A model generated the notes under the pieces. The model was not told the DNA's origin and searched no databases. It saw only the letters and a program-made list of their open reading frames with translations. From Escherichia coli (lineage in GTDB: Bacteria > Pseudomonadota > Gammaproteobacteria > Enterobacterales > Enterobacteriaceae), in assembly GCF_024298765.1 (NCBI RefSeq), contig NZ_CP101210.1: DNA of 64,000 bases. One strand, 5' to 3'. A program made the position numbers and the translations under genes. Shown here one piece after another: positions 14,351-64,000 of this stretch (within the stretch, counting starts at the first letter, position 1; the number at the start of each line of letters is the position of its first letter).

Positions 14351-14417
14351 CTTTTCACTCACATTCATCACGATGGCAAAAGACTATTGTCTGAAAGTGA
14401 AGTCCTTGTGAAGTATT

Positions 14418-44662: not shown

Positions 44663-44751
44663 AATGAAGATTTTCCTGATATGCAGAGATAAAAAATGGG
44701 ACAGTGGCGTGGTGAAAGCACCAGGCCGGAGCAGAAGGTTATTCTGGAGAG

Positions 44752-45120: not shown

Positions 45121-45282
45121 GATAAAATCCTCACAGAAAATCGGTTAAGAATGGTTTAACGATGACAGGTCAGCCGGCGCGCAGACCGCCTTCGGTAAAG
45201 GTGTATTCGTTTATGAGCAGGGCCTCATCCACAGCGGCGTCTGAGCTCAGCCAGTCGTACTCGTTTTCCGGGTGACGGAACA

Positions 45283-45504: not shown

Positions 45505-45566
45505 AATGGGATACCTCTGAAGACAGAAGATAAAAGTGAAAACAGGTGTGATGTGGTTGTGACGGG

Positions 45567-46043
45567 TTAAAGCAGACCATGTTCGGCAAAGGAGAAAACC
45601 TGGTTGCCACCGACTATCAGATGGTCCGGCACCCGGATATCCACCAGGCCCAGTGCCTGTACCAGACGTTCGGTGATAAGCCGGTCTGCCTTACTGGGTG
45701 TGACTTCACCGGACGGGTGATTGTGCGCCAGCACCACGGCAGCGGCATTGTGGTACAGGGCGCGTTTAATCACTTCCCGGGGATGGACTTCCGTGCGGTT
45801 GATGGTGCCGGTGAAGAGGGTTTCACCGGCAATCAGCTGATTCTGGTTATTCAGATACAGTACCCGGAATTCTTCACGCTCCAGTCCCGCCATGTTCAGA
45901 ATCAGCCATTCCCGTGCCGCACGGGTGGAGGTGAAGGCCACGCCGGGTTCATGAAGATGACGGTCCAGGGTTTTCAGGGCCCGCTGAATAAGGCTGCGCT
46001 CGCCGGGCGTCATCGCTCCGGGCAGAAAGGAAAGCTGTTGCAT
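45567..46043 (-). CDS. RadC-like JAB-domain protein (YeeS/YkfG/YfjY family)
   Basis: 158 aa; JAMM motif HNHPSGEVTPSKAD. Confidence 0.85.
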   Translation of the reverse strand: MQQLSFLPGAMTPGERSLIQRALKTLDRHLHEPGVAFTSTRAAREWLILNMAGLEREEFRVLYLNNQNQLIAGETLFTGTINRTEVHPREVIKRALYHNAAAVVLAHNHPSGEVTPSKADRLITERLVQALGLVDIRVPDHLIVGGNQVFSFAEHGLL

Positions 46044-46054
46044 GGCCTCTCTCC

Positions 46055-46534
46055 TCAGTCAATGATGCGCATAATGGCGCTGCATTCCGGATGCTGCAGG
46101 GCGTAATCCCGCAGCCGGTAATAATGGACCGTCATGGCATAACACTCCGTACGACAGGCGTGATGACTGTACGTCATCAGACAGGCAGCAATGCCGGCGG
46201 CTTCCGGGCTCATTTCAGCGCGGTTACCGTTCATGGCACTGAACAGTACCCATGTTTCGTCATCATCGTCATCCGGTTCGGGTGCCATAAATGCGCCACC
46301 GTTGTTCAGGGTGTACAGATTCCAGATACCCCCGCAGTAGTCTTCACACAGACGGTCCATCCAGCCGAAGATACGGGGCTCCAGGGTCACCCACTGTGGA
46401 ATGAGGCCAAAATGCTGCGGCCAGAAGCTGATGCGCTGTTCATCAGGGACGAGGCTGGCAACCAGCTGAGGCGGATTATTCTCTGGTGTTGTAGCTGAAT
46501 AAATTGTGGGGGTATTCTGAGAAACGGTCTTCAT
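46055..46534 (-). CDS. antirestriction protein (ArdB/KlcA family, YfjX-like)
   Basis: 159 aa; acidic DDDDDE stretch; conserved position upstream of radC-like gene. Confidence 0.8.
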   Translation of the reverse strand: MKTVSQNTPTIYSATTPENNPPQLVASLVPDEQRISFWPQHFGLIPQWVTLEPRIFGWMDRLCEDYCGGIWNLYTLNNGGAFMAPEPDDDDDETWVLFSAMNGNRAEMSPEAAGIAACLMTYSHHACRTECYAMTVHYYRLRDYALQHPECSAIMRIID

Positions 46535-46615
46535 GAGATAACTCCTTAAATAACAAATAAATGTGTGTTTTTCAGGAACGAAAGCTGAATGATTCCCTCA
46601 CTCAGGGAAACGGCA

Positions 46616-47434
46616 TCAGCGCAGGCTCTCCAGCATCGTTTCTGCCATCACCCACAATGCGCGGTTGAGCTTAATGTCGGTATCAATGCTGTGAATGGCC
46701 CGGGTATGGATACGTTTTCCTCTGGCACTGCGCCCGGAAATCCCGCCTTTCAGCATATTCTCCTGGATGGTCTGATAAGCACTCCACAGGTCCTTACCGT
46801 AATCCTCCCGGCGTCGTGGTGTCAGAATGTCGGCGGTGGTGACGGGCTGATGTTCGTCACCATAACGGTAAGTCAGCGCCGCCTGTGCCAGCGCCTGGCG
46901 TGCCGGTGGCGGCAGGACCAGCGACTGCATGGCATCACGCTTCTCCTCTATCCGGTCAAACACGCCCACCACCTCGTAAGCCCCTTCAATGACTCTGTCC
47001 ACCACATTTCCCCGGTGCGGAACACGTACTTCCCCCAGAGACTGACCACAGACGCAGCCGTTCTGGCAGACGAACCTGAAGTACCCCGGCAGCATCTGGT
47101 AGCTGGAGGTACCGTCATGAGAGTTGAGCAGAATAATTTCAGGGACATGTTCTCCGTTTATCTCTCCGGCCCGCCGCAGACGCAGCATGTGTTTTGTGTA
47201 TTCCCGGCGGCTCTGGTCGCGCACACGGGTCTGGCAGGCGAAGAACGGCTGAAAGCCTTCCCGCTGCAGATTTTCCAGGACGGTGATGGTGGGAATGTAC
47301 GCATACCGTTCACTGCGGGAGGTGTGCCGGTCTTCTCCAAAAATACTCGGGACGTGGTACATCAGTTCTTCGCGTGTCAGTGGGCGCTCCCGACGGATCT
47401 GATTTACATGACCAAAACGACTGGCTAATTGCAT
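46616..47434 (-). CDS. DUF932 protein (YafZ/YfjQ-like)
   Basis: 272-aa ORF; conserved backbone position. Confidence 0.75.
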   Translation of the reverse strand: MQLASRFGHVNQIRRERPLTREELMYHVPSIFGEDRHTSRSERYAYIPTITVLENLQREGFQPFFACQTRVRDQSRREYTKHMLRLRRAGEINGEHVPEIILLNSHDGTSSYQMLPGYFRFVCQNGCVCGQSLGEVRVPHRGNVVDRVIEGAYEVVGVFDRIEEKRDAMQSLVLPPPARQALAQAALTYRYGDEHQPVTTADILTPRRREDYGKDLWSAYQTIQENMLKGGISGRSARGKRIHTRAIHSIDTDIKLNRALWVMAETMLESLR

Positions 47435-47472
47435 ACTTTGCTCCTTATGAATGAATTAGCGGTATAAACGAA

Positions 47473-47500
47473 AAGGCCGCGTCTCCCGGAGAAGACGCGG
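47473..47500. other. intercistronic GC-rich stem-loop
   Basis: ggccgcgtct-cccggaga-agacgcggcc: perfect 10-bp stem between the DUF905 and DUF932 genes. Confidence 0.5.
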
Positions 47501-47523
47501 CCTGATGGATGAAATGAAGACGT

Positions 47524-47757
47524 TTATTGCCTGAGAATTCCCTCACTGGCGAGATACGAATTTAGCTGTTTTCCGGCATCAGGTTCAAAATTCCAGCACC
47601 GCCAGCGTAGCTGCCCTTCGGCATTGCGGATAACCAGCCGGAAATGCGTTCCCTGGTCATCCTCAATAAGCACATTGCGGTAAGCTGTTGTGACGGCAAC
47701 CGCCTGTTCGCGTGAGAAAGGGCCTTCGGGCAATAAAACAGGGTGGCAGTCCGACAT
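47524..47757 (-). CDS. DUF905 small protein
   Basis: 77-aa [51 protein letters not shown]... Confidence 0.65.
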
Positions 47758-47762
47758 ACCGG

Positions 47763-48440
47763 CTATTTTCCGATAAATTCAACGCTGGCGCCGGTGGCAT
47801 TACCGTCAGCACCAACCGTGACGGTCACTTTGTCGTACGCACGGTCTTCAGGATTGAATACTTCAAACTCAACCTTATTGCCTTTTACTTCGTAAGAGCC
47901 AAAATCAGCGGTTTCTGTTGTTTCCTCGTCATATTCCCGGGCGTATGCCTGCCGGGCAGCCTGCAGGACGGAATCTTTATTAATAGTGGTCGTCTGTTTC
48001 GGGGAAAAACCGGCAAGTGATGTGACAAATTTCGGACAGACCTTCAGCATATCACCGCGGGTGAATTCCATTCGTACACCAAATGCCTGTAAAACGGACA
48101 CATCACGCTCTGCTATGGAGTGAACGGCTTTTTTGACCATTTCCGGCGCCTGTCCGATTTCCACCTCAACAGCCCTGAATCCCGTCTGCTGATTACACAT
48201 TTGTGATGTGGGGATCAGGTTACCGTTAATACTGATACGGCTGCCCAGGAGCGTCTGTACACCATTCGGGCATCCCTGCATCAGGCCGGTAATACCAATC
48301 GTGCCATTTTTCAGCATTACCAGCGCCTGACCATCTTCCGTCATGGTCTGACACCAGCCGTTTTTGACAGCCCAGTTGCCGGCGGAGGCGGAGAATGATG
48401 CCACAGTGAACAGCAGGGGAAAAAGAGCTCTGGTATTCAT
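47763..48440 (-). CDS. secreted/periplasmic protein of unknown function
   Basis: 225 aa from [20 protein letters not shown] (signal peptide); GAGG Shine-Dalgarno upstream. Confidence 0.55.
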
Positions 48441-48587
48441 GACTGACCTCTGAAATGAACGTACGGTGTTATTGATAATGATGGAAGGTATGCAGTGACT
48501 GTTCAGGGAATGACGTAGCCGTATATTTAGTTTTCTGTTCAACATATTGTCTCCATACCTGTCGGGACGGCTTTGGCAGGCCGGCGA

Positions 48588-49268
48588 TCACAGGTTAAAG
48601 GTGTTGATAAGTTTATGGATGAAAGAGAAATGTGGCAGGGCGGAGATAAAACGCTCTTCAGCGACCAGACTGTGGATGTGGCCTCTCCGTTCAAACCGTT
48701 CTGATGTCAGGCTGACTGATTTGATATCTGCCAGAGGAAAGACCTGCAGTTTTCCCTTCTGTAACGCGATCAGATACCAGCTACCGCTGTAATAAATGAG
48801 CCGGCAGGGCTCCAGTGACGGATACCATCGCTCAGTCATCAGAGAGATGTGGATACACTGTCTTATTGCCAGGATGAGTTGCGAGAAACACTCGGGGAAC
48901 GTTGCAGTGATATCCGGCGCCGGTAGCCAGATAAGGCAGGGAGAGGGCTCCTGGTTGTCGGTAAGACAGGTTATCAGTCGTCCGTTCCGGAGCGGAAGTA
49001 TCCGTGCGATCCCGGTATTCTGTATAAAAGAAAGCATTTCAGGGATCGCACCTGGGCTGCTCTGTCGTCTGAGGCTGTACCTGCCATTTCTGTACTCTAA
49101 ATCCAGGTGAACCAGACGCTGATGAAAATCGCGCTGTAAAGTACGTTCTGTAACGCCAAATTCATCTGACAGTGTTTTTAGTGACAGAGATTCTCCGGCC
49201 ATCAGTCGGCTGATAATGAGTGATAAGCGAACCGCCAGGCGATCATGCCGGGAACGATTATCAGACAT
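48588..49268 (-). CDS. HTH plus WYL-domain transcriptional regulator (YfjR-like)
   Basis: 226 aa; N-terminal DeoR-type HTH (KTLSDEFGVTERTLQRD); C-terminal WYL-like region. Confidence 0.65.
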   Translation of the reverse strand: MSDNRSRHDRLAVRLSLIISRLMAGESLSLKTLSDEFGVTERTLQRDFHQRLVHLDLEYRNGRYSLRRQSSPGAIPEMLSFIQNTGIARILPLRNGRLITCLTDNQEPSPCLIWLPAPDITATFPECFSQLILAIRQCIHISLMTERWYPSLEPCRLIYYSGSWYLIALQKGKLQVFPLADIKSVSLTSERFERRGHIHSLVAEERFISALPHFSFIHKLINTFNL

Positions 49269-49470
49269 AGATGTGCACTCCGTAAGAAAACATCTTTTAT
49301 TTCATGATGTTATTATGCATCATGATGTTGAAAGGATGTGTCGCATCCGGATAATCAGGAATAAAATGCAGCAGAAAAAATATTCTTTTAATTATCTGAT
49401 TTTTAAGCATGATTTCATAAAAAGAAGAATGCTCGTTAATCCAGCGACACATCCTGTCGGCGTGAGTGTG

Positions 49471-50355
49471 TCAGAACAGACGCTCCCACAGTGTGATCAG
49501 CAGGTGGATAATGCGGTCCCGGGCTTTACGCAGAAGCTGTAACATCCAGGCCGGAAAACTGAACCGGGCAACGGCGTCGTCAAAACTTTTCCCGATGGCA
49601 TCACCAAAAGTCTGTTGTGCGTGTTTCCGGGCCTGTTCAGAGCGGTTTTCCCCCCTGATATGTGAATAAACTGCGCTGGTTGCCTGTGGTGGCAGCGCGT
49701 GGATCATCAGTGACACCAGCGCTGGAAGGTTCCAGCCTGCAGGTGCGGCTACAGGGAGTACCGGAAATGATGAAGGGAACAGGGTGGCCACCCGGGCTGT
49801 TACTGTCGCCAGTGAGAGTTCCTGGTGACGGGACGGGCATTTTTCTGTGGCATTCCATTCTTCAGCAGGAAACATGCGATCGGCATGGCTGAGAACAAAC
49901 AGAAAGCGCGAGGGATCTGCGCCCTCATTCAGTAAAAACTGATGCATGGCAATATCGGCAGCATACGCACGTTCATCACTCCGCAGGATCCAGATAATCA
50001 GATCCAGTTCCGGCAGTAACTGACGATAAAGCGCTCGGTATTCCTGATCATGCTGCGGTGTTTCACCAATGCCGGGCAGATCGACCAGCGTCATTCTGCG
50101 TTCACCGAGCTGCAGGGTAAGACGATGAGCCTGGCGGGTGCAGCCGTTCAGGGGATGCGTGGCGCAGATACGGGACTGAAAAATGGCATTACACAGGCTG
50201 CTCTTGCCGGTGCCGGATTTACCCATAATGCCAATCACGGGCTCGTAATGAATAACACCGTGGAGATGTTCAAGGATTTTCTGGCGTATTTCTTCAGGAA
50301 GAAACGTCAGATATGATTTCACTTGCGCGGAGAGGGAAGAATTGCTGAATGGCAT
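49471..50355 (-). CDS. GTPase (YfjP/YkfA/YeeP family)
   Basis: 294 aa; P-loop GKSGTGKSS, DLPG switch, ribosome-associated GTPase-like. Confidence 0.8.
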   Translation of the reverse strand: MPFSNSSLSAQVKSYLTFLPEEIRQKILEHLHGVIHYEPVIGIMGKSGTGKSSLCNAIFQSRICATHPLNGCTRQAHRLTLQLGERRMTLVDLPGIGETPQHDQEYRALYRQLLPELDLIIWILRSDERAYAADIAMHQFLLNEGADPSRFLFVLSHADRMFPAEEWNATEKCPSRHQELSLATVTARVATLFPSSFPVLPVAAPAGWNLPALVSLMIHALPPQATSAVYSHIRGENRSEQARKHAQQTFGDAIGKSFDDAVARFSFPAWMLQLLRKARDRIIHLLITLWERLF

Positions 50356-50455
50356 ACCGGTATCCTGTTGATTTCACTGAACCGGATCACACTAATCCGG
50401 TTTATCATTCAGGTAATATGGGTGTGAAAATTTTTCCATTGACGGGAAGAAGAGT

Positions 50456-51679
50456 ATGGCTAAAAACAAAGGTATTTGTCGGAATAAAAAATGCAGTAAT
50501 CCTGTTTCAGAATTTGATGAGGCAAATGCCTTAAGGTTATGCGATGATCATTATAAGCTATGGAAGCGAAATAAAGAGAATCGTCGGGTCAGGAATATTT
50601 GTCGTATAATCAGTAAATATGACAAAAGTCTGGACCGGGAGATATTTTATGGAGTAAGAGATGCTGCAAAAAATAAAACGGGAAAGAGAATTATTGAGGA
50701 CGCAAAAATATTACATCAATGCCGTGCCTCAAAGCAAGTAAGAAAAAGTTTTCACAAGGGTGTGCTTCGGTCACGGGAATGGCTTAATACACAGGAGTTA
50801 CTGAGCAGAAAACATATATCTGTTACAGGTGAACTATTTAAATTTTACATAAAAGATATTATCAGATTATATTGCTATAAGTTTCTCTACAGCAGAGAAT
50901 ATCTTAATGAAAACGCATACAAAAAACGATATCAGAGTGATATTCACCCCAGAAAAGTTAATGTTCCGATACTGCAACTTGAAGTTGCATGGATAAATAA
51001 TAATTGCCGTTCAAGTGATTCAAGCACTGATATTATTATCCTTCCGAGGATGATAAGAAGAATGGTTGTATTTAATTATACGAAGATAAATAAACAATTA
51101 GAGAAATTGTTAGGGGGGATAGCACGAAAACAAACCTCAGAAAGGAATAAAGGCGGTCTCTATACCAGAATAAAAAAAGAAAGTGACTTTCTTTCTATGG
51201 ATAGATTTATGGTGGAAATAGAAAATATCATAAGGCCTGAAAGGTTTCCGACATCAATTTATCCAGTCTTTTCACATTCATTTATTGAACGAGAGCTTCC
51301 GCTACTGAATCTTGCTCGATCACAGTATAAAAGAGCAATAAGTAAAAAAGTGGCGAATTCAATTTTTTATACTTTGCAAAAAACTAACGTAGCATTATGG
51401 CTACATCTTGAAATGTTTGCTCTGGTGGCATTCATTAAACTGTATACAGGAAAAGGTTTTGAATTCATAAAAAACATGTGTGCATTTATCGATTATAATA
51501 ATGGGATAATAAAATCCACACATGAAGAACTACTGGGTGAAATTAAGCATAACATTCAGGTTAATTTGAAGGTGAACCCTGATAATTTTCCTGAGCTAAT
51601 AAATATATACAATTCATGTTTTAGTAAAAATATATTTTTATATGATATTAATGATGGTAATTTTAAATGGTGTTCATGA
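50456..51679 (+). CDS. hypothetical protein, Lys-rich with N-terminal Cys/His cluster (candidate novel defense/abortive-infection gene)
   Basis: 407-aa ORF; purine-rich RBS; very AT-rich codon usage; C8-x4-C13...C29-x2-H32; divergent from GTPase gene. Confidence 0.6.
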   Translation: MAKNKGICRNKKCSNPVSEFDEANALRLCDDHYKLWKRNKENRRVRNICRIISKYDKSLDREIFYGVRDAAKNKTGKRIIEDAKILHQCRASKQVRKSFHKGVLRSREWLNTQELLSRKHISVTGELFKFYIKDIIRLYCYKFLYSREYLNENAYKKRYQSDIHPRKVNVPILQLEVAWINNNCRSSDSSTDIIILPRMIRRMVVFNYTKINKQLEKLLGGIARKQTSERNKGGLYTRIKKESDFLSMDRFMVEIENIIRPERFPTSIYPVFSHSFIERELPLLNLARSQYKRAISKKVANSIFYTLQKTNVALWLHLEMFALVAFIKLYTGKGFEFIKNMCAFIDYNNGIIKSTHEELLGEIKHNIQVNLKVNPDNFPELINIYNSCFSKNIFLYDINDGNFKWCS

Positions 51680-51978
51680 TTCTAAAATAGCAAATTCATA
51701 TTGCATATTAATTATCAACAAAAAACACATAATAAAATTTCAATAAGTTACCTGCTAATGGTGCTGATGATCCGCCAGTTTAGTATGGTTATATGATTTG
51801 ATGGTTAATGCTTACAGATAATCACACTTTCTTATGAATAGTATAAATGAGCATGCCATAGTCGTTTGTTCAGAGATAAAATTTACTGAATGAGCTTATG
51901 TTGTGGTTATCTGTACTTACCGGATACGACGACTTATATTCCTCACATTATATGGCTTAACTTTTCTGGGGTAAAGCG

Positions 51979-52044
51979 ATGGAGTTACAGACGCTGATTA
52001 CGATGGTTTACTGTCTCGTTATCACGGGATTTCTGCTGTACTGA
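51979..52044 (+). CDS. putative 21-aa hydrophobic mini-protein (speculative)
   Basis: ORF MELQTLITMVYCLVITGFLLY preceded by GGGGTAAAGCG; could be chance in AT-rich DNA. Confidence 0.2.
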   Translation: MELQTLITMVYCLVITGFLLY

Positions 52045-52184
52045 ATACGTGAACAGGAAAATAACTCCAGAGTAAATCTGCTCTGTTTTTAGGACAGAAA
52101 ACTCCATGCTGGCTGTAAAAGTGAAAAATTAACACCCAGTATGTATGGAAGTCTGAAGATGTTGAGAATGTCGGTATGATACTA

Positions 52185-52330
52185 TATACACGTATTTTAC
52201 TAAGTATTTTTACTAAGCATTTCAGTAAGTGTTATACACGTATTTTCTACTAAGTGTTTTACCAGACATACACGTATTTTCATAAACACTTCTACAAGTG
52301 TTTTCGTTAAGCATTGCTATACACATCCAG
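52185..52330. repeat. tandem imperfect direct repeats (ATACACGTATTTT ... ACTAAGTnTTTT)
   Basis: tatacacgtatttt at 52185 and 52233, catacacgtatttt at 52267, gctatacacatcc at 52317; each followed by actaagt/acaagt then a T-run. Confidence 0.5.
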
Positions 52331-52842
52331 TTTAGTAAATCTTTACGTTAACTAAATCAGTTTAATGCTGCTGTAAAACCTTTCTGTTTAAGCAATCAAT
52401 CTGCTATTCGATTTTACTGATGTTACGTTTAACCTTTCCTTAGATTTCGAGTTTCGACGTTAGCTTGAGAAAAGTATCTTTACGTAAAGCCCAGTGAATT
52501 AACTCAAATCCGATTGAGGTAACCTGATGCGATTTACTGTGAGTTTGCGATAACACTGTTAAATGGCTTATGGATGATTTTGTAACGGCGAGATTGATAA
52601 GGTGATTAACTGGCCCTGGTGTTTTTTCTCAGCGTAAGGTGATTATCTTCATCATAAGGCTCTTTTCAGAAAAAGTGTGATGATTGGTTGTGGTGTTTTG
52701 ATTCAGATGAGGATCTGCCAATGATTATGATGTATTGTAAGAAATAACGCCTTCAGAATGTTGGAGCATGCACTTACACAAACTGTTTTTCTAAAATTAA
52801 GGGAACAGTTTAAAGAGTATAAACTGTTCATCTTCTTCAGGA

Positions 52843-53373
52843 TTAAGCTACATTGTTGTTATGACTGACAGGATTGTTTTCTTCCCCTGACTCTGGGCTT
52901 AACAGTCCCTGGCGTTGTAGATATTCACTGACTGACATTCCAGAACTACGGATCCTGTCAGAGATTTTACGAAATTGATCCTTCCATTCTGCAGGTAATT
53001 TCTTAATTTGTCTGACTTTACAGGCTACACTGTACGGGGTTCGCCCTAGTTTCTCTGCCAGCCAGAAAAGGTGTTTACCAATTTCATCGTCCGGTACATC
53101 CTCCAGAACATCTCGCAATAAACTCTCGTCTGCCTCATTCCATGCCACACCAGCATTTGGGAAACGAGGATCGATCTCTCTTTCCTTCTTCTCCTTCTTA
53201 CTTTGCTCTTTTCGGGATGATACAGATACGACAGAACGTTCTTTTACCGCTGTAATTGCCATAACTGCATTGAGCAGAGATCTGCGCTCCACATCGTTCA
53301 GCATTTTTCCTTCACAGATCAAATCATTCAGGATGTCAATGACTAGATTCAGACTTTCTTCTGTTAGCTTCAT
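52843..53373 (-). CDS. hypothetical protein with putative HTH
   Basis: 176-aa ORF; AAGG RBS 8 nt upstream; charged KE-rich linker; HTH-like LAEKLGRTPYSVACKVRQIKK. Confidence 0.55.
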   Translation of the reverse strand: MKLTEESLNLVIDILNDLICEGKMLNDVERRSLLNAVMAITAVKERSVVSVSSRKEQSKKEKKEREIDPRFPNAGVAWNEADESLLRDVLEDVPDDEIGKHLFWLAEKLGRTPYSVACKVRQIKKLPAEWKDQFRKISDRIRSSGMSVSEYLQRQGLLSPESGEENNPVSHNNNVA

Positions 53374-53987
53374 ATTTCAGACCTTGAAGTATGTAGATAA
53401 TCAGCACAATTACTAATGTGATAAATATCAGAAGATAATTTACAGGTAAACCGGAAAATACATCTGAAGAATAAAGGCCTCAGCTTAACGTTTCAGCCAG
53501 TTTGTGAGCTGATTGAGGTACGGCGATGACATTAACGGGAATTACTCCCCTATAGCTCTGAGCTTATTTTTCACCCTGGCAACATATGGTGGCTACTGCG
53601 CATGGTTTTGGAGTAGATATCTTACTACTCGTAGAATTGTGCTTACTGGTCAGGCCAGCGCACAGGCATTCCGTGCAATCAATAGAACACTGGTTTTTTA
53701 GTCTTCCGTTACCCATCAGGATGTTAGTGCAGATTCCGGTGTATTCGATCAGTTGTTCGGCGAATCAGCGATCGATCACGATGCGATTTCGTATGTTAGG
53801 GATGCTGGTATGATTACTCGCTGAAAAATAATGTGAAAAGGCAGTTTTTCTTTAGACATTTAGCTCATTCATGCTGTTGTTTTACGTTTTGCTGTCGTGT
53901 GCAGGATTATCTTTTCGTTACGGGACGATTCATTCCGTTTTAATCAGGAGCTATTGGCGTTGCTCATTGGTGGGATGCCGTAAAGTT

Positions 53988-54035
53988 TTACCGCGGCGAT
54001 TAATGATGTGAAGTCAATCCAAATCAACGGAGATC
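53988..54035. repeat. conserved leader element (copy 1) shared with 62702-62744
   Basis: ttaccgcggcgattaatgatgtgaagtcaatccaaatcaacggagatc versus ttaccgccttgcttaatgatgtgaactgaagtcaacggagatc. Confidence 0.55.
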
Positions 54036-54042
54036 TCTCATC

Positions 54043-54774
54043 ATGAATCAACCAATACACAATGATTACTGGTTATCCCGTTTTGAAAGTATTCTCAACA
54101 GTGCCCTGGTGCAACACCGTGCCGTCTCGTTAATCCGGGTGGATTTACGTTTCCCTGAGCATATGCCTGTCACCATCATGGATCCCGATCCGGATTCAGC
54201 GGTGATTTCTCGTTTTTTCGAATCCCTGAAAGCCAAAATTCAGGCTTACCAGCGGAAAAAACGACGTACCAACAAGCGTGTGCGTGCAACCACCCTGCAT
54301 TATTTCTGGTGTCGAGAGTTTGGCAAGGAAAAAGGCAGGAAACATTATCACGTGATATTACTGCTCAACAAAGATACCTGGTGCTCGCCAGGGGATTTCA
54401 CCGTTCCTTCTTCGCTGGCGACGCTGATCCAACTGGCATGGTGTAGCGCTCTGCATCTTGAGCCCTGGCAGGGTAATGGACTGGTTCATTTTTCCAGGCG
54501 GACGCCTTTCCGTAAACCGGCATCATCTGATGCTCGCCCTTCTTCCGATGATACGCCTTTGTCGGGTGGATGTTCTGAAACCAGGAAGGCTTCAGACAAA
54601 AAGCCGGGTGAAGCCGCTGTTCTCTGGATCAAGCGTGGTGATGTGGAAGCGATGCAGAAAGCCATGGAGAGAGCCCGTTATCTCGTGAAGTATGAGACGA
54701 AGCAGCATGACGGTTCTGGTCAACGTAATTATGGTTGCAGCCGTGGAGCGGGGCGTCTACTGGATGGCAGGTGA
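54043..54774 (+). CDS. inovirus Gp2-like replication-associated protein (YagK/YfjJ family)
   Basis: 243 aa; HYHVILLL motif region; family assignment from memory. Confidence 0.65.
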   Translation: MNQPIHNDYWLSRFESILNSALVQHRAVSLIRVDLRFPEHMPVTIMDPDPDSAVISRFFESLKAKIQAYQRKKRRTNKRVRATTLHYFWCREFGKEKGRKHYHVILLLNKDTWCSPGDFTVPSSLATLIQLAWCSALHLEPWQGNGLVHFSRRTPFRKPASSDARPSSDDTPLSGGCSETRKASDKKPGEAAVLWIKRGDVEAMQKAMERARYLVKYETKQHDGSGQRNYGCSRGAGRLLDGR

Positions 54775-54884
54775 ACCCTGTAAAACGGCATCCGGTGCCA
54801 GAGTATATGTCACAGTAAGGTCGTTGGCTGACGCCCTTAGCTCGTTTTCTGAAAAAGTTTTTCTGAAGTAATGTGGATTTGCCC

Positions 54885-55790
54885 CTATATTTCCAGACAT
54901 CTGTTATCACTTAACCCATTACAAGCCCGCTGCCGCAGATATTCCCGTGGCGAGCGATAACCCAGCGCACTATGCGGATGCCATTCGTTATAATGCTCGA
55001 ACGCCTCTGCAAGGTTCTTTGCTGCCGTTAACCCGTCTGGTTTGGGCATGATACTGATGTAGTCACGCTTTATCGTTTTCACGAAGCTCTCTGCGATTCC
55101 GTTACTCTCCGGACTCCGCACCGCCGTGTTCTTCGGTTCAAGTCCCAACATCCGGGCGAACTGGCGTGTTTCATTAGCCCGGTAGCATGAACCATTATCC
55201 GTCAGCCACTCCACTGGAGACGACGGAAGATCGTTGCCGAAGCGGCGTTCCACCGCTCCCAGCATGACGTCCTGTACTGTTTCACTGTTGAAGCCGCCGG
55301 TAGTGACCGCCCAGTGCAGTGCCTCACGATCACAGCAGTCCAGCGCGAACGTGACACGCAGTCTCTCTCCGTTATCACAGCAGAACTCGAACCCGTCAGA
55401 GCACCATCGCTGATTGCTTTCTTTCACGGCCACTCTGCCTGTATGTGCCCGTTTCGATGGCGGTACAGCAGGTTTTCGCTCAAGCAACAGCGCATTCTGG
55501 CGCATGATCCGGTAAACACGTTTGGCATTGATCGCAGGCATACCATCAAGTTCGGCCTGTCTGCGAAGCAGCACCCATACCCGACGATAACCATATGTGG
55601 GCAGCTCTCCGATAACATGGTGTATACGGAGAAGCACATCCGTATCATCAGTGTGACGGCTGCGGCGACCATCTTTCCAGTCATCGGTTCGTCTGAGAAT
55701 GACGTGCAACTGCGCACGCGACACCCGGAGACAACGGCTGACTAAGCTTACTCCCCATCCCCGGGCAATAAGGGCGCGTGCGCTATCCAC
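54885..55790 (-). CDS. insD: IS2 transposase InsD (OrfB)
   Basis: 301 aa [34 protein letters not shown]...; DDE integrase core. Confidence 0.92.
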
Positions 55791-56113
55791 TTTTTTGCAC
55801 GCCCATATTCAACGGCTTCTTTAAGGAGTTCATTTTCCATCGTTTTTTTGCCGAGCAGGCGCTGGAGTTCTTTAATCTGCTTCATGGCAGCAGCAAGTTC
55901 AGAGGCAGGAACGACCTGTTCTCCTGCGGCCACAGCAGTAAGACTTCCCTCCTGGTATTGCTTGCGCCAGAGAAATAACTGGCTGGCTGCCACACCGTGT
56001 TGCCGGGCAACAAGGGAGACCGTCATTCCCGGTTCAAAACTCTGCTGAACAATAGCGATCTTTTCCTGTGTAGTACGCCGTCTGCGTTTCTCCGGTCCTA
56101 AGACATCAATCAT
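55748..56113 (-). CDS. insC: IS2 InsC (OrfA)
   Basis: 121 aa from [29 protein letters not shown]. Confidence 0.9.
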
Positions 56114-56261
56114 CTGCTCTCCAATGACTAGTCTAAAAACTAGTATTAAGACTATCACTTAAATAAGTGATATTGGTTGTCTGGAGATTCAGGGGGGCCA
56201 GTCTACTGAATGAGCGAAATGTGATTTACCTTCTTTTCTGTTCATTGTAAATTCCCTCTTT

Positions 56262-56290
56262 GCTAACGCAAATCATTATCATTACGCCTT
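56262..56290 (+). promoter_or_regulatory. putative Fur box in receptor promoter
   Basis: aatcattatcattac contains AATCATTATC, an exact match to the 3-prime half of the Fur consensus GATAATGATAATCATTATC. Confidence 0.45.
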
Positions 56291-56306
56291 TGGCAAAGGG
56301 AAATTT

Positions 56307-58355
56307 ATGAAGAACAAATATATCATTGCTCCGGGCATTGCCGTGATGTGTTCTGCAGTTATATCATCAGGTTATGCCAGTTCTGATAAAAAAGAAGATA
56401 CGCTTGTTGTTACTGCCTCCGGGTTCACTCAGCAGCTCAGAAATGCCCCGGCCAGTGTCTCAGTCATTACTTCAGAACAACTGCAAAAAAAACCGGTTTC
56501 AGATCTGGTCGATGCAGTAAAAGATGTTGAAGGGATTAGTATCACTGGTGGGAATGAAAAACCGGATATCAGTATACGTGGTCTAAGTGGCGATTACACG
56601 CTGATTCTGGTCGATGGACGACGTCAGAGCGGTCGGGAATCCAGACCAAACGGCAGCGGCGGTTTTGAAGCCGGATTTATCCCTCCTGTGGAAGCAATTG
56701 AACGCATTGAAGTGATCCGTGGCCCTATGTCTTCCCTGTATGGTTCTGATGCCATCGGAGGGGTCATTAATATCATAACCAAACCAGTTAATAACCAAAC
56801 ATGGGATGGCGTACTTGGACTTGGGGGGATTATTCAGGAACATGGGAAATTTGGTAACTCAACCACAAATGACTTCTATCTGTCAGGCCCATTGATTAAG
56901 GATAAACTTGGTCTTCAGCTATATGGAGGAATGAACTATCGCAAGGAAGATAGTATCTCTCAGGGAACACCGGCAAAAGATAATAAGAATATAACGGCAA
57001 CGCTCCAGTTTACTCCGACTGAAAGCCAGAAGTTTGTTTTTGAATATGGAAAAAATAACCAGGTGCATACATTAACACCTGGTGAGTCTCTCGATGCCTG
57101 GACTATGCGGGGAAATCTTAAACAACCAAACAGTAAAAGAGAAACGCATAATTCACGTAGTCACTGGGTAGCAGCATGGAATGCCCAGGGCGAAATACTG
57201 CATCCTGAAATTGCTGTTTATCAGGAGAAAGTTATTCGTGAGATTAAATCAGGTAAAAAAGATAAATATAATCATTGGGATCTTAATTACGAGTCAAGAA
57301 AACCGGAAATAACCAACACAATCATAGATGCAAAAGTGACGGCATTTCTGCCGGAAAATGTACTGACCATCGGAGGTCAATTTCAGCATGCAGAGCTCCG
57401 TGATGACTCAGCCACGGGTAAAAAAACGACAGAAACACAGTCTGTTTCAATTAAACAGAAAGCTGTTTTTATAGAAAATGAATATGCAGCAACGGATTCT
57501 CTCGCCCTGACTGGAGGACTGCGTCTCGATAATCATGAAATCTATGGCAGTTACTGGAATCCAAGATTGTACGCTGTTTATAACCTGACCGATAATCTCA
57601 CACTCAAAGGGGGGATCGCAAAAGCATTTCGGGCTCCTTCAATTCGTGAGGTGAGTCCTGGATTTGGAACACTGACGCAGGGTGGTGCCTCTATTATGTA
57701 TGGAAACAGGGACCTGAAACCGGAGACCAGTGTAACCGAAGAGATCGGTATTATTTATAGTAATGATAGTGGTTTTTCGGCGAGCGCGACGCTGTTTAAT
57801 ACTGATTTTAAAAATAAGTTGACCAGTTACGATATAGGTACAAAAGATCCAGTCACCGGGTTAAACACTTTTATTTATGATAATGTAGGTGAGGCAAATA
57901 TCAGAGGGGTGGAGCTTGCAACTCAGATTCCTGTGTATGATAAATGGCATGTATCTGCAAACTATACATTTACTGACTCTCGTCGAAAAAGTGATGACGA
58001 AAGTCTCAATGGCAAGTCGCTGAAAGGGGAACCTCTGGAAAGAACTCCCAGACATGCAGCCAATGCAAAACTGGAATGGGATTACACTCAGGATATTACA
58101 TTTTATTCATCTCTGAATTATACGGGAAAACAAATCTGGGCAGCACAAAGAAATGGTGCTAAGGTTCCCCGCGTTCGTAATGGATTCACATCTATGGATA
58201 TTGGTCTAAATTACCAGATTCTGCCAGACACGCTGATTAATTTTGCCGTTCTTAACGTCACAGACAGAAAGAGCGAGGATATCGATACCATTGATGGTAA
58301 CTGGCAGGTCGATGAAGGACGCCGTTATTGGGCTAATGTAAGAGTATCCTTCTGA
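56307..58355 (+). CDS. ireA: TonB-dependent outer-membrane siderophore receptor (IreA-like)
   Basis: 682 aa; signal peptide; TonB box DTLVVTAS; plug domain; C-terminal beta-barrel ending in F; symbol from memory of IreA length and N-terminus. Confidence 0.7.
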   Translation: MKNKYIIAPGIAVMCSAVISSGYASSDKKEDTLVVTASGFTQQLRNAPASVSVITSEQLQKKPVSDLVDAVKDVEGISITGGNEKPDISIRGLSGDYTLILVDGRRQSGRESRPNGSGGFEAGFIPPVEAIERIEVIRGPMSSLYGSDAIGGVINIITKPVNNQTWDGVLGLGGIIQEHGKFGNSTTNDFYLSGPLIKDKLGLQLYGGMNYRKEDSISQGTPAKDNKNITATLQFTPTESQKFVFEYGKNNQVHTLTPGESLDAWTMRGNLKQPNSKRETHNSRSHWVAAWNAQGEILHPEIAVYQEKVIREIKSGKKDKYNHWDLNYESRKPEITNTIIDAKVTAFLPENVLTIGGQFQHAELRDDSATGKKTTETQSVSIKQKAVFIENEYAATDSLALTGGLRLDNHEIYGSYWNPRLYAVYNLTDNLTLKGGIAKAFRAPSIREVSPGFGTLTQGGASIMYGNRDLKPETSVTEEIGIIYSNDSGFSASATLFNTDFKNKLTSYDIGTKDPVTGLNTFIYDNVGEANIRGVELATQIPVYDKWHVSANYTFTDSRRKSDDESLNGKSLKGEPLERTPRHAANAKLEWDYTQDITFYSSLNYTGKQIWAAQRNGAKVPRVRNGFTSMDIGLNYQILPDTLINFAVLNVTDRKSEDIDTIDGNWQVDEGRRYWANVRVSF

Positions 58356-58372
58356 GAGTATATAAAGACAAC

Positions 58373-58393
58373 CTGAGGCCGTGAGCCTCAGGT
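58373..58393 (+). terminator. stem-loop downstream of receptor gene
   Basis: cctgaggccgtgagcctcagg; no clear T-run. Confidence 0.4.
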
Positions 58394-59736
58394 ACCAGTG
58401 TAGTAATCAGTAATGTCAGTTTCCAGGTTGTAATGCTTTTAATCTTGATTAAAATAATCTTAATAATTTAAACTTGTTAAATATCGATGATTTTAATTTG
58501 AGAGCGTTCAGAATTCTGTGTCACGTTAAAAATTCTACAGCGTCATCACATTATTCAGCCGCCCTTCAAAATAAATGGCTAACTGCGACAATGTCAAATT
58601 CCAGCTTTGGATGGGCATTGTCCATTTCTCCTGTGCGTTCATCAGTCCCAGATAAAGTAGCTTCAACAGGCTGTTTTCATTCGGGAAAGCACCTTTAGGT
58701 TTTGGTCAGTTTCCTGAACTGGCGGTGGACTGATTCTATCGCGTTGGTTGTGTAGATCACCTTGCGGATATTCGCCGGATAGCGGAAGTACGCTGACAGA
58801 TTTTCCCTCTTGCGGCGCCAGGACTGGAGCACCACCGGATATTGCTGCCCCCGTTTCGCTTCCAGCTCATCCAGCGCCGTTTCCGACACCGCACGATACA
58901 CTGGCTTCAGGTCGGCCATGAACGCTTTATGGTGTTTTGACGCCACATATTTAATCGAGTTACGTATCTGGTGAATGACGCACAACTGTACCTCTGTCTG
59001 CGGATAAATGCTGTTTATCGCTTCAGGGAAGCCGGTCAGCCCATCCACGCAGGCAATCAGAATGTCTTCAACGCCACGGTTTTGCAGATCACTTAATACT
59101 GACAGCCAGAAGTTAGCGCCTTCGCTTTCCGACAAATACAGGCCCAGGACTTCTTTTTTGCCTTCCAGATTCAGCGCCAGTACGGTATAAACTGCCTTGC
59201 TCTGATAACACCCATCTTCGCGGATTTTATAGTGAATGGCGTCCAGCCAGACGAAGGGATAAACCTTTTCCAGCGGGCGCTGCTGCCACTGTTTTAACTC
59301 AGGAATGACTTTATCGGTAACCGCACTGATGGTAGCCGTGGAAACACTGAAGGCATATAAATCTTCGATCTCCCGGCTGATATCCTGGTAGCTCATCCCC
59401 AGCGCGAACAGGCGAATGATCTTGCGCTCGAGCTCATCAGACAGCGTGGTCTGGTGCTTCTTCACCAGTTGGGGTTCAAAATAACCATTACGATCACGTG
59501 GAGTTGCCAGCTCAAAGCTGCCAGTCGGGGCTTTAATGGTCTTTTTTCCGGAACCATTTTTACGATTGACTTCAAAATCCTGAGCCAGATGGGAGTCGAG
59601 TTCAGCGGCCAGAGCGGTTTCTGTTAACTGTTTGATTAATGGCGTTAGGATACCATCCTTGCCGGTTAATGCTTGGCCGGACTGAACCGCCCCGGAAATC
59701 CTGGAGACTAAACTCCCTGAGAAAGAGGTAAACAGG

Positions 59737-60063
59737 ATGACTAAAAATACTCGTTTTTCCCCCGAAGTCCGTCAACGGGCAGTTCGTATGGTTCTGGAAA
59801 GTCAGGGCGAATATGACTCACAATGGGCGGCAATTTGTTCCATTGCTCCAAAGACTGGCTGTACGCCGGAGACTCTGCGTGTCTGGGTTCGCCAGTATGA
59901 GCGGGATACCGGGGGCGGAGATGGAGGGCTCACCAGTGCTGAACGTCAGCGTCTGAAAGAGCTGGAACGTGAAAATCGTGAACTGCGCCGCAGCAACAAT
60001 ATCCTTCGCCAGGCTTCCGCTTATTTTGCGAAGGCGGAGTTCGACCGCCTCTGGAAAAAGTGA
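59737..60063 (+). CDS. IS629 OrfA
   Basis: 108 aa [39 protein letters not shown]... Confidence 0.88.
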
Positions 60064-60950
60064 TGGCACTGCTGGATAAGCTGCGTGAGCAGTACGGGGT
60101 CAGACCGGTATGCAGTGAACTGCATATTGCCCCGTCAACGTATTACCACTGTCAGCAACAGCGACATCATCCTGATAAACGCAGTGCACATGCACAGCGC
60201 GATGACTGGCTGAAGAGAGAGATACAGCGCGTATACGATGAAAATCATCAGTGTACCGTGTGCGTAAAGTCTGGCGCCAGTTGTTACGGGAAGGAATCAG
60301 GATGGCCAGATGTACAGTGGTGCGCCTCATGGCGGTTATGGGACTTGCCGGTGTTCTCCGGGGTAAAAAGGTCCGCACTACCGTCAGCCGGAAAACCGTT
60401 GCCGCAGGTGACCGCGTAAACCGTCAGTTCGTGGCAGAACGTCCTGACCAGCTGTGGGTGGCTGATTTTACTTACGTCAGCACATGGCAGGGCTTCGTCT
60501 ATAGTGGCGTTCATCATTGATGTATTTGCCGGATATATCGTGGGGTGGTGGGTCTCATCGTCTATGGAAACGACATTCGTGCTGGATGCGCTGGAGCAGG
60601 CGTTGTGGGCCCGCCGTCCGTCCGGCACCATCCATCACAGCGATAAAGGCTCTCAGTATGTGTCACTGGCCTATATGGAGCGATTAAAAGAAGCAAAACT
60701 GCTGGCATCAACAGGGAGTACAGGCGACTCGTATGACAACGCGATGGCGGAGAGCATCAATGGTCTTTACAAAGCGGAGGTAATACACCGTAAGAGCTGG
60801 AAAAACCGTGCAGAAGTGGAACTGGCCACACTCACGTGGGTGGACTGGTATAACAATCGACGATTGCTGGGAAGGCTGGGCCATACTCCTCCGGCAGAAG
60901 CAGAAAAAGCTTATTATGCTTCCATCGGAAACAATGATCTGGCAGCCTGA
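60060..60950 (+). pseudogene. IS629 OrfB transposase, frameshifted
   Basis: DDE transposase sequence split over three overlapping frames (60060-60419, 60251-60520, 60504-60950). Confidence 0.8.
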
Positions 60951-61097
60951 GTTCACAGATAAAACACTCTCCAGGAAACCCGGGGCGGTTCAGGACTGGA
61001 GTGCCTTAAGCGCTTTATCGAAATCGAAGGGTTGGGACATGTGTCATTCCTTTTTGGTTGTATATTACTGGAATGACACAGAATTTCTAACACTCCC

Positions 61098-62085
61098 TTT
61101 AATTTAGGTTTATTACTATTATTATACTTACTCTCTTTTTTACATGACCTCAATCTTTACGATTATATTCACTCTATCTTTACACATTCCATTACTCTTA
61201 TCCTCATCCAATTATATTCATGTCCTTCTCTAATCTTCCTTGTCACCATTATCATAATATCCACTTCTTCCCTCATTCAATCATAATTACTGTAATTCAT
61301 ACGTTACTCAGATAAGTTATTCTCTACAGCTACGCTATTGTTGATATCCATCTGTTCTCATTTTCAGTGAAACAGTAATTGATTTTAATTTATCCATCAT
61401 GAACTGTATTTGCTTAACAATGATTGTTTATCTGAAGTGTTTTAACTATTCTGGTTGGAAACAATTTCTCTGTCATCAAAGATTAACTGAATGTTTACTC
61501 TTTGATAAGGTATCCATGGTTCCGTCATGTTTAACAGCGCAGGATAAACAACAGAATTAACAGAGTGAATTTCTGATTATATTTGTTGCCGGTTGTATTG
61601 TTTAAGGTACTGGGTGAAAATTATTCATCCATTGTATGTTGTCTTATGCTATCGTGTGTCGTTAACGTTCATATCCTGGAAAACAGATTGAATAAGCGCG
61701 TGTGAGTTTATTGTGGTGACCTTATAAACGTTTTTTCAGACTCACTGAGAGCAAATTTACAAATCATGAGCTTATAGTTGTAATATGTTTCCTAACCGCC
61801 TGGCAGCGGGATTACAGTTCGTATTTTTCTGTATTTCACTGTGTTGTATTGAATCTGTATTTTCTTCGCACCTCGTTTATCTCATCTCTATAGACAATGC
61901 CATCAGATAACTCATACCCTTCAGCACAACGCTGTGTGTCGTTAATAATCCGTCGTATCCATTCTGTTACAGCATGCCTGATAAATACCATCTGTAAGTT
62001 ATTACCGTTTTAGATCTGATTATGAGCGAAAGCATTAATTCGCTCACAGAGCTTAAAACATCATTAACTTTCAGGAGTCATCAAC
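61098..62085. other. about 1 kb ORF-free AT-rich spacer with G-depleted tract
   Basis: No ORF of 60 aa or more on either strand; 61108-61300 is pyrimidine-rich on the plus strand with about six G. Confidence 0.6.
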
Positions 62086-62652
62086 ATGCCTAAATCTTAC
62101 ACACCAAACTGGTTTTTTACCGCTTTACTTGACAATCACATCAATCAAATGATGGCACGCTATTCCTGCCTGCGGGCCTTACGGATGGATTTCTTCTACA
62201 GGAAGGATACGCCTGATTTCTTACAACCTGATCATCGTTGGCTTGAATTACAACTGCGTATGCTGCTGGAGCAGGTTGAACAGTTTGAAAATATGGTTGG
62301 CTTCTTCTGGGTGATTGAATGGACGGTTGATCATGGTTTTCATGCGCATGTGGTCTTCTGGCTCGATCGTCAGAGGGTTAAAAAAATATATCCCTTTGCG
62401 GAGCGGATTACGGAATGCTGGCGGTCTATTACGCATAACAGCGGTTCGGCACACCGCTGTACATATCAGCCGCATTATACATACAACATCAACATTCCTG
62501 TGCGCCACAACGATCCTGAAAGCATCGATAATATTCGCGGTGCCCTGCATTATCTGGCAAAAGAAGAGCAAAAAGACGGGCTGTGTGCCTACGGCTGCAA
62601 TGAAGTTCCTGAACGTCCTGCTGCAGGGCGTCCTCGTAAGCCTCACTTCTGA
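62086..62652 (+). CDS. inovirus Gp2-like protein (YagK/YfjJ family paralogue)
   Basis: 188 aa; FHAHVVFWLDRQ motif region analogous to HYHVILLLNKD of the 54043 gene. Confidence 0.6.
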   Translation: MPKSYTPNWFFTALLDNHINQMMARYSCLRALRMDFFYRKDTPDFLQPDHRWLELQLRMLLEQVEQFENMVGFFWVIEWTVDHGFHAHVVFWLDRQRVKKIYPFAERITECWRSITHNSGSAHRCTYQPHYTYNINIPVRHNDPESIDNIRGALHYLAKEEQKDGLCAYGCNEVPERPAAGRPRKPHF

Positions 62653-62701
62653 AGCTTAAATCCTGAGCTTCCTGTCCTGGAAACATTCCGTCGGTAAAAC
62701 C

Positions 62702-62744
62702 TTACCGCCTTGCTTAATGATGTGAACTGAAGTCAACGGAGATC
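62702..62744. repeat. conserved leader element (copy 2)
   Basis: See copy 1 at 53988-54035. Confidence 0.55.
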
Positions 62745-62909
62745 ATTCACTCTGAACCACATCCGGTGTTCTGTCCCTTGTCGGTGACCTGATCTTCCCG
62801 TTCTGCCCCGGTTCTTCACTTATTCCATCAACCCCATCCGCAAACCATAACACGTCAGCTTATTCACGGGCAGGACGCATTGTGGGCTGCGCATAACGGA
62901 GCATATCTT

Positions 62910-63482
62910 ATGAATGCTATCCCTTATTTCGACTATAGCCTGGCCCCCTTCTGGCCATCTTATCAGAACAAAATCATCGGCGTTCTCAACCGTGTGTTGC
63001 GCGAGCAGTCCTGCTCCCGAATACGGCGGATCCTGCTTCGTCTGCCGGGGGAACATGGCAACATCTTCAGCGACAGAAAAACCTGGTTCGGTATGGCCTT
63101 TATCGAAACCGTCAGTGCGCTGATGAATGCAACACCCGGACGTGACCTCTGCTGGCTCCTGACACGTCATCCTGAAAAACCGGAATACCACGTGGTGCTG
63201 TGCGTCAGACAGGAGTATTTCGACGGCCCTGAACTGGATCGGCTGATTCTGGATGCCTGGAGCAACGTACTGGGCTTCGCATCACCGGGTGAAGCAGCAC
63301 CGTACCAGAAGCAGATCACCCGGGATGTGGTGCTGGACAGTTGTTCACCGGACTGCGAAGAGAGACTCAAAGAGCTGATATGGGCGTTCAGTGATTTCGC
63401 CCGCGATCGTCGTGGTGTGCGCGATCCGGAAGCCCGTTACCTCGCCGGTAATCCCTGGTATCCCGTAGCAGGCCAGCTCTGA
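62910..63482 (+). CDS. hypothetical protein, possible third Gp2-like paralogue
   Basis: 190 aa from MNAIPYFDYS; GGAG RBS; EYHVVLCVRQEYF motif. Confidence 0.5.
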   Translation: MNAIPYFDYSLAPFWPSYQNKIIGVLNRVLREQSCSRIRRILLRLPGEHGNIFSDRKTWFGMAFIETVSALMNATPGRDLCWLLTRHPEKPEYHVVLCVRQEYFDGPELDRLILDAWSNVLGFASPGEAAPYQKQITRDVVLDSCSPDCEERLKELIWAFSDFARDRRGVRDPEARYLAGNPWYPVAGQL

Positions 63483-63550
63483 AAGCTCAGCTCAGCAGAT
63501 TCACCCGCATTTGCCCAACATTCATAAATCTCACAGAGGACATTCTGACC

Positions 63551-63787
63551 ATGTTGACCTCAATGACAGGTCACGACAGCGTATTGCTGCGTGCCGACGA
63601 TCCCCTGATCGACATGAACTACATCACCAGCTTCACTGGTATGACCGACAAATGGTTTTACAAGCTGATCAGTGAAGGCCATTTCCCTAAACCCATCAAA
63701 CTGGGGCGCAGCAGCCGCTGGTACAAAAGTGAAGTGGAGCAGTGGATGCAGCATCGAATCGAGGCATCACGAGGGGCAGCAGCATGA
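63551..63787 (+). CDS. AlpA-family prophage regulatory protein (excisionase-like HTH)
   Basis: 78 aa; ...ITSFTGMTDKWFYKLISEGHFPKPIKLGRSSRWYKSEVEQWM resembles AlpA/Xis-type HTH. Confidence 0.7.
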   Translation: MLTSMTGHDSVLLRADDPLIDMNYITSFTGMTDKWFYKLISEGHFPKPIKLGRSSRWYKSEVEQWMQHRIEASRGAAA

Positions 63788-64000
63788 AACGTGTTGTAAT
63801 GCCGGTACGCTGGCAATGTGCAAAATACCAGCGTTGGTATTGTGGAAATCAGCCCTGTCCCTGGTGCTGGCGACATTTACGTTCATCTTCTTGCAGACAT
63901 TCTCCAGTCAGCCAGCAGGTTGTAGCTCTTCCTGACTGATTCGTCATTCCATTCTTATTGATTATAACTGGCATTACACCGGTGCTGGCGTGCTTTCCTG

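Follow-up and report, generated by a model that had tools for sequence, protein, structure and literature searches.

The window analysed here is a stretch of 64,000 nucleotides from Escherichia coli (RefSeq assembly GCF_024298765.1, contig NZ_CP101210.1), which starts at dnaA. Towards its other end, a single open reading frame on the plus strand (56307..58355) encodes a TonB-dependent outer-membrane receptor of 682 amino acids plus stop codon. A sequence-only reading of the window had likened this protein to IreA, which was first described from the ExPEC strains CP9 and CFT073 by Russo et al. in 2001 according to the passages of PMC7545054 and PMC4988017 that refer to that work. The likeness is borne out: the protein scores 1518.3 bits against the IreA equivalog model of NCBIfam (NF010011; cutoff 1197) with coverage of residues 1-682 of 682, and it is identical to CFT073 IreA (c5174; NC_004431 4935990..4938038) at 681 of 682 positions (99.85%), with I313V as the sole change and a single nucleotide difference in 2049. 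Furthermore, the DNA including its flanks is 100% identical to loci in many E. coli genomes, avian pathogenic strains among them, that are annotated as ireA in RefSeq (WP_000792543.1, TonB-dependent siderophore receptor IreA). The comparison with other receptor classes that had been proposed as a check gave an unambiguous result: all other receptor models remained far below their own curated cutoffs (CirA, for example, reached 400 bits against a cutoff of 745), leaving the IreA equivalog as the only one exceeded. Judged by its membership of this family together with its near-identity to the experimentally studied CFT073 protein, the open reading frame is an intact copy of ireA, known from ExPEC as the iron-responsive-element gene.

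The architecture of the protein is that of a TonB-dependent transporter, and each of the elements named by the sequence-only reading is present in the Pfam matches and the alignment with CirA. Residues 1-24 (56307..56378) form a predicted signal peptide of the typical Sec type, MKNKYIIAPGIAVMCSAVISSGYA, followed by SS; the cleavage site was placed after GYA on the basis of sequence features and of the mature N-terminus of CirA (PDB ID: 2hdf), which aligns from about IreA residue 25-27. The TonB box DTLVVTA (residues 31-37; 56397..56417) aligns with ETMVVTA at the CirA N-terminus and is followed by the plug domain (residues 44-153; 56436..56765; Pfam PF07715, E 1.2e-28) and the beta-barrel domain (56928..58352). 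The latter is matched by PF00593 over residues 208-651 (E 1.4e-53) and also by PF14905, and it extends past the Pfam match to a C-terminal aromatic residue, Phe682, in the final sequence RVSF.

A search of the PDB returned no IreA structure, the closest solved relative being CirA (E 4e-104), followed by FepA, PfeA and PirA. CirA, a receptor for colicin I and catecholates (PDB IDs: 2hdf, 9nn6), aligns over IreA residues 27-678, and IreA retains both the TonB box and the plug motifs; however, IreA falls well short of the CirA equivalog cutoff, and the alignment contains many gaps in the extracellular loop regions, so that neither ligand nor colicin specificity can be transferred from CirA to IreA. 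The nearest relatives outside E. coli are IreA-family receptors of the same length and domain set from Salmonella enterica (76% identity) and Morganella morganii (65-66% identity). The Morganella homologues lie on contigs that can be as large as a chromosome (about 4 Mb), which points to a chromosomal location of the gene in this genus, and the E. coli gene may have derived from such a Salmonella/Morganella-type lineage.

The Fur operator and the 5' region of ireA

Upstream of the gene, a Shine-Dalgarno-like AAGGGA (56296..56301), read from the sequence and with its function presumed, places its AAGGG core 6 nt before the ATG. It is preceded by a Fur box on the plus strand (56262..56286), and position 56262, from which the feature had originally been drawn, is the first base of this match rather than the start of the gene. 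The core 19-mer GCTAACGCAAATCATTATC (56262..56280) lies 27-45 bp before the ATG, as is appropriate for a Fur operator, and agrees with the Fur consensus GATAATGATAATCATTATC at 15 of 19 positions. A search for the consensus with up to 3 mismatches found nothing in the window, because the ireA site carries 4; the site was instead identified by ranking all 19-mers of the window against the consensus, in which it scored best of the about 128,000 positions that the two strands offer. Overlapping matches of 13-14/19 extend the site to 56286. The sequence-only reading had noted a half-Fur-box in the promoter, and this observation can be improved upon: the decamer AATCATTATC (56271..56280) is the 3' half of the complete 19-mer.

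This 19-mer is identical to the Fur motif reported under the ireA ChIP-seq peak in CFT073 (PMC7157518, supplementary file 6), the centre of which is at 4935947, 43 bp before the ireA ATG. In the CFT073 fur mutant, ireA RNA increased 39-fold and IreA protein 185-fold with no effect of RyhB, and ireA was designated a direct Fur target (PMC7157518). A 27-bp block holding the Fur site is invariant in four contexts: the selC island of the window, the pheU island of CFT073, an STEC chromosome with a 95%-identical allele, and a plasmid. Identity to a ChIP-validated site thus identifies the ireA operator as real, and regulation by Fur and iron in the copy studied here would be expected to equal that in CFT073.

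The native 5' region that has been retained comprises 101 bp (56206..56306, plus strand), contains the operator and presumably also the promoter, and is the same as in CFT073 bar one base at -53; it forms a highly conserved block across the four contexts. A standard promoter scan between the upstream insertion sequence and the ireA ATG found no sigma-70 site, and a looser scan of the same 101 bp returned only weak candidates, TTCCCT-N19-TATCAT or TTCCCT-N16-CATTAT, both of which overlap the Fur box. Overlap of promoter and Fur box is usual for Fur-repressed promoters. The transcription start site probably lies within the 101 bp, and the promoter may have survived the insertion, although they hold no convincing sigma-70 consensus. 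At the other end of the gene, a G+C-rich palindromic hairpin (58371..58393; 10-bp stem with 6 G-C pairs) begins 16 nt past the stop codon; it could act as the ireA terminator, with a T-rich tail solely on its minus-strand side.

Insertion sequences and mobility of ireA

The insertion sequence that borders the retained region is an IS2 element of the IS3 family on the minus strand (54874..56205), whose edge lies 101 bp upstream of ireA. Its transposase, encoded by open reading frames at 55748..56158 and 54885..55790, reads away from ireA, so that the element is joined to the ireA upstream region by its transposase-start end; NF006918 matches TnpB with 722 bits (cutoff 597), and RefSeq names the element an IS3-like element IS2 family transposase. 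The 5-bp flanks differ (TAATG and CTGAA), i.e. there is no target-site duplication, and IS2 stands in place of about 580 bp of CFT073 DNA (positions 35309..35888 of the CFT073 locus, L002). Identity to CFT073 is 88% immediately left of IS2 and 98-100% to its right, which indicates that the ireA block has a history different from that of the island backbone. IS2 is a secondary insertion accompanied by an adjacent deletion. An 18-nt inverted repeat between the left flank of IS2 and the inside of ireA was also considered and is most likely due to chance, given that its left arm falls within a stretch that can be aligned with CFT073 (88%) up to the edge of IS2. The allele is common: of 5426 complete E. 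coli genomes, 341 are ireA-positive, and among these junction-spanning queries identified 155 (about 45%) that share the exact IS2-ireA junction and 176 that have the intact CFT073-type upstream region.

Downstream of ireA lies a degenerate IS256-family element on the minus strand (58502..61095; 1284 bp when the nested element is subtracted), which is split by an IS3-family insertion. Its terminal inverted repeats (58502-58523 and 61074-61095) are 82% complementary, and its transposase, matched by NF033543 with 325 bits and labelled in RefSeq as a frameshifted IS256 family transposase, is truncated and interrupted by premature stops and frameshifts: the element is a dead remnant. The IS3-family element inside it (59683..60992, plus strand; 1310 bp), which may be IS629/IS1203-like, is recognised by transposase matches, by TGAACCGCCCCGG termini and by a 4-bp GGAC target duplication; it contains an ALIL frameshift pseudoknot (RF01497, 60018..60134, 117.6 bits), and its orfB is broken into several open reading frames.

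That ireA is bracketed by IS2 and an IS256-family element, as had been recognised from the sequence, is confirmed by the NF006918 and NF033543 matches. The IS-mediated acquisition that was read from this arrangement holds up only in part: the bracket exists, but a composite transposon has to be rejected as the two elements on either side of ireA are not of one family, that of the IS256 family is degenerate and IS2 has no target duplication. Comparison of genomic contexts provides further insight into how the gene travels. The ireA cassette common to the STEC and plasmid contexts ends at 58499/58500, beside the IS256-family inverted repeat, and a bare cassette with the 95%-identical allele is found in an island of an STEC genome beside a gene for a YadA-like adhesin. 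The gene also occurs on 23 E. coli plasmids, most of them conjugative; in these the match is often split in two, with the pieces spaced about 1.3 kb more widely than in the query. In APEC BEN2908, the IS2-ireA module together with roughly 14 kb of CP4-like backbone is present at the pheU locus, next to cadC, with identical proteins throughout (CP4-like backbone, Gp2-family gene, IS2, ireA, IS256 remnant and IS3), and hence ireA also travels within a larger island block. Judging by these contexts, ireA moves both as a small cassette and within large island blocks; IS elements are plausible drivers of this movement.

The selC island and the host lineage

Homology to K-12 (adeQ to yicL) stops at 41708, just past yicL, and the remaining 22 kb (41709..64000) are the distal part of a large mosaic genomic island whose anchor, tRNA-Sec (selC), lies past the end of the window. 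The corresponding selC-yicL interval in K-12 spans only about 1.9 kb (yicT, setC). A tRNA search found none inside the window, and the anchor was instead located in the collinear chromosome of MSHS 133, in which the island reaches tRNA-Sec at 129793..129887, with a tyrosine integrase at 128309..129493. The whole island in MSHS 133 measures ~88 kb and carries as other cargo fec, pgt, a PTS/transketolase cluster, hlyE and an autotransporter. The G+C content of ireA (42.9%; GC3 36%) deviates from the 52.3% of the core part of the window. The region thus combines the features by which genomic and pathogenicity islands are recognised, namely absence from K-12, a tRNA gene with integrase (both seen through MSHS 133), deviating G+C content and mobility genes, and the island setting of the gene that had been claimed is upheld by the end of K-12 homology together with the difference in base composition. 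Its low G+C content and the presence of its nearest non-E. coli relatives in Salmonella and Morganella identify ireA as horizontally acquired cargo. Scans for anti-phage defence and phage families among the unannotated neighbours of ireA gave nothing informative.

Comparison with the ireA locus of CFT073 reveals a shared core in a different setting. Both loci encode 682 amino acids behind an identical Fur-box 19-mer, with the same IS256-family and IS3-family elements downstream and a Gp2-family gene upstream. However, CFT073 has no IS2 and retains about 580 bp of extra upstream DNA, and its island is at pheU with an adjoining pap operon; the island backbone left of ireA is 86-94% identical to CFT073 as compared to 98-100% for the ireA block. 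Like the island in the window, PAI II CFT073 at pheU and two islands at pheV, those of S88 and APEC O1, are mosaics anchored at a tRNA gene that contain CP4-like backbone genes and numerous IS elements and have ireA among their cargo; PAI I APEC-O1 (pheV) carries ireA, pap and tia. In contrast to these islands, the one in the window is anchored at selC, with ~88 kb that include fec, pgt, the PTS/transketolase cluster, hlyE and the autotransporter. A literature search returned no paper placing ireA in a selC island, yet many database genomes have such an arrangement.

MSHS 133 is also informative with respect to the host, as it is a documented ST117 isolate from human urinary tract infection that groups with isolates from retail chicken. 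Its chromosome and the window are collinear, with 36,199 of 36,200 and 23,769 of 23,781 bases identical, and one ISVsa5 insertion of MSHS 133 is missing from the window. This near-identity supports an ExPEC-like host of an ST117-like ExPEC/APEC lineage. Of the earlier proposal of an ExPEC- or STEC-like strain other than K-12, the ExPEC assignment (1 nt in 36.2 kb) and the distinction from K-12 were therefore retained, whilst the STEC option was dropped: no STEC-specific feature was seen within the window.

Function, regulation and alternative explanations

Taken together, the locus is very probably explained by an intact ireA encoding a Fur-repressed, TonB-dependent importer of an iron chelate that was acquired horizontally as cargo of the selC island. 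Its product would be an outer-membrane transporter of the 22-strand type, with plug and TonB box in its N-terminal part. As long as iron is in good supply, Fe2+-Fur would bind the operator (56262..56286), overlapping the likely -10 region and repressing transcription, and under iron starvation, as in urine, blood or tissue, this repression would be lifted; IreA would then be exported via Sec, inserted in the outer membrane and energised by TonB-ExbBD in order to import its iron chelate. The IS2 insertion 101 bp upstream would have removed about 580 bp whilst sparing both the Fur box and the conserved block of the proximal promoter. Since CirA, FepA and IrgA are the nearest characterised relatives, the likeliest chelate is a siderophore of the catecholate type or of foreign origin, although both the ligand class and the role of IreA as a siderophore receptor are deduced from this relationship. 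IreA has been termed "putative" or "less well characterized" (PMC7157518, PMC2736566), and a search of the literature for an IreA ligand, xenosiderophores and cefiderocol uptake returned no ligand, only speculation. Carriage of enterobactin conjugates by IreA is one suggestion found there.

Several alternatives were weighed against this explanation. The open reading frame could encode a merely IreA-like TonB-dependent receptor of another class (CirA, Iha, a heme receptor or BtuB), given its significant similarity to the CirA, FepA and heme-receptor models; the NF010011 score, the only curated cutoff passed, and the 99.85% identity to the named CFT073 protein refute this, and we grant it virtually no chance of being correct. 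It is also conceivable that, in the manner of its relative Iha, IreA serves chiefly in adhesion or against envelope stress, with iron import secondary or absent. Deletion of ireA in APEC DE205B reduced adhesion to DF-1 cells as well as survival in alkali, high osmolarity and cold, but left the duck LD50 unchanged (PMC4988017), which together with the lack of a reported ligand in the literature examined would fit such a role. However, the TonB box, plug and barrel are all conserved in a full-length alignment with the transporter CirA, ireA is under tight Fur repression, as are the other iron receptors (PMC7157518), and other iron-uptake genes were upregulated in the APEC mutant, suggesting a role in iron supply (PMC4988017). 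A primarily adhesive or stress-related function thus appears unlikely, and the two roles are not mutually exclusive. The abstract of the latter study, in which ireA expression is higher in high iron, was rejected as evidence against Fur repression: it contradicts the discussion of the same paper, where the opposite direction is stated. Results from infection support the importance of the gene in the urinary tract, as infected mice showed a 23-fold induction of ireA in their urine, deletion of the gene lowered fitness in the mouse urinary tract and intranasal vaccination with IreA protected the bladder (PMC2736566).

The remaining alternative concerns IS2, whose insertion at -101 could have rewired ireA through loss of upstream regulatory or promoter DNA or gain of outward transcription, leaving the gene partly Fur-independent or silent. 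The replacement of about 580 bp relative to CFT073 with no target duplication, the wide spread of the junction (155 genomes versus 176 intact), the lack of a clear promoter consensus in the 101 bp left and a weak outward-facing candidate in the IS2 end (TTAAGA-N17-GATATT, 56146..56174) can all be cited for this. Nevertheless, IS2 left the Fur box, the Shine-Dalgarno sequence and the entire conserved proximal block untouched; the four ireA contexts already diverge upstream of -101, including a 13-bp deletion in the STEC allele; and the ChIP peak in CFT073 has its centre 43 bp before the ATG, at the Fur box, as is typical of an operator that overlaps its promoter. In addition, the coding sequence is intact and nearly invariant in genomes with the IS2 allele at two chromosomal sites, which argues for continued selection. 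We hence consider rewiring quite improbable, and prefer the explanation in which Fur control of ireA has been preserved. The bolder proposal that the IS2 allele, carried by about 45% of ireA-positive complete genomes and found in both selC and pheU islands, is a regulatory adaptation which alters how strongly IreA is expressed or how far its expression depends on iron is likewise a long shot; if correct, it could matter for IreA-based vaccines and could explain why iron regulation has been reported as weak or inconsistent for some avian strains.

The gene itself, its control by Fur, its association with islands and its role in virulence and vaccination are all already known, and the value of the locus is thus one of annotation only: a recognised virulence and vaccine-candidate gene is present with its Fur operator intact, and it marks the host as a member of an ExPEC/APEC-type lineage resembling ST117.

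Island genes around ireA

The DNA to the left of the ireA block comprises a CP4-44/CP4-57-like island backbone (42939..50355, minus strand), with genes for a GTPase, an HTH regulator, DUF905 and DUF932 proteins, an antirestriction protein and a JAB/RadC-like protein, together with DUF987, the CbeA antitoxin and CbtA toxin, a truncated DUF5983, DUF957 and DUF4942. Comparison with the pheU island of the ExPEC strain CFT073 revealed a difference between the two blocks: the backbone is 86-94% identical, whereas the ireA block reaches 98-100%. A stretch of 31-41% G+C separating the CP4-like GTPase gene from the ireA block encodes a 407-aa hypothetical protein (WP_001107214.1; 50456..51679, plus strand), for which the PADLOC and PHROGs libraries returned no match. 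The same protein is carried by the pheU island of the APEC strain BEN2908, while CFT073 has other genes in its place.

The island also holds three paralogous YagK/YfjJ ("inovirus Gp2 family") genes, all on the plus strand (54043..54774, 62086..62652 and 62880..63482), one of which is found immediately upstream of the IS2-ireA block and is 88% identical to its CFT073 counterpart. We also observed an 18-nt inverted repeat (94% complementary) with one arm immediately left of IS2 (54856..54873) and the other within ireA (56465..56482). This repeat is probably due to chance, since the alignment with CFT073, at 88% identity, extends through the left arm as far as the IS2 edge.

Of the RNA elements elsewhere in the window, the AsdA antisense RNA of dnaA (511..591, minus strand), the ES036 sRNA (6068..6110, minus strand), the ROSE_2 thermometer before ibpA (16241..16313, plus strand) and istR adjoining tisB (26564..26693, plus strand), all identified through Rfam, are ordinary core-genome RNAs.

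Nested insertion elements downstream of ireA

Downstream of ireA we find an IS256-family element (58502..61095), its ends defined by 22-nt inverted repeats, that is interrupted by a 1310-bp IS3-family element (59683..60992) with a 4-bp GGAC target duplication; the transposases of both are degenerate. CFT073 displays the same nested layout through 60993 and then diverges towards the pap operon. In case of the ST117 human UTI isolate MSHS 133, the genome is near-identical to the window except for an ISVsa5 (IS10-type) insertion at window position 59871..59879, where those 9 bp are duplicated. ISVsa5 is absent from the window at this site, so the window stems from a closely related strain rather than from MSHS 133 itself.

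Iron response and other contexts of ireA

Caution is required when citing the ireA deletion study in an APEC strain (PMC4988017) on iron, as it contradicts itself: the abstract gives a 1.8-fold increase of ireA expression in high-iron medium, while the discussion describes decreased expression in high iron. On the STEC17-190 chromosome (8100..15136 of the locus), a 95%-identical ireA is followed by genes for a 1440-aa YadA-like adhesin and an OmpA-family protein. Matches from PLSDB place ireA on plasmids of E. coli as well: there are 23, of which 18 are conjugative. For about half of the 23, the match falls into two pieces spaced ~1.3 kb wider than in the query, and on one plasmid ireA is frameshifted.
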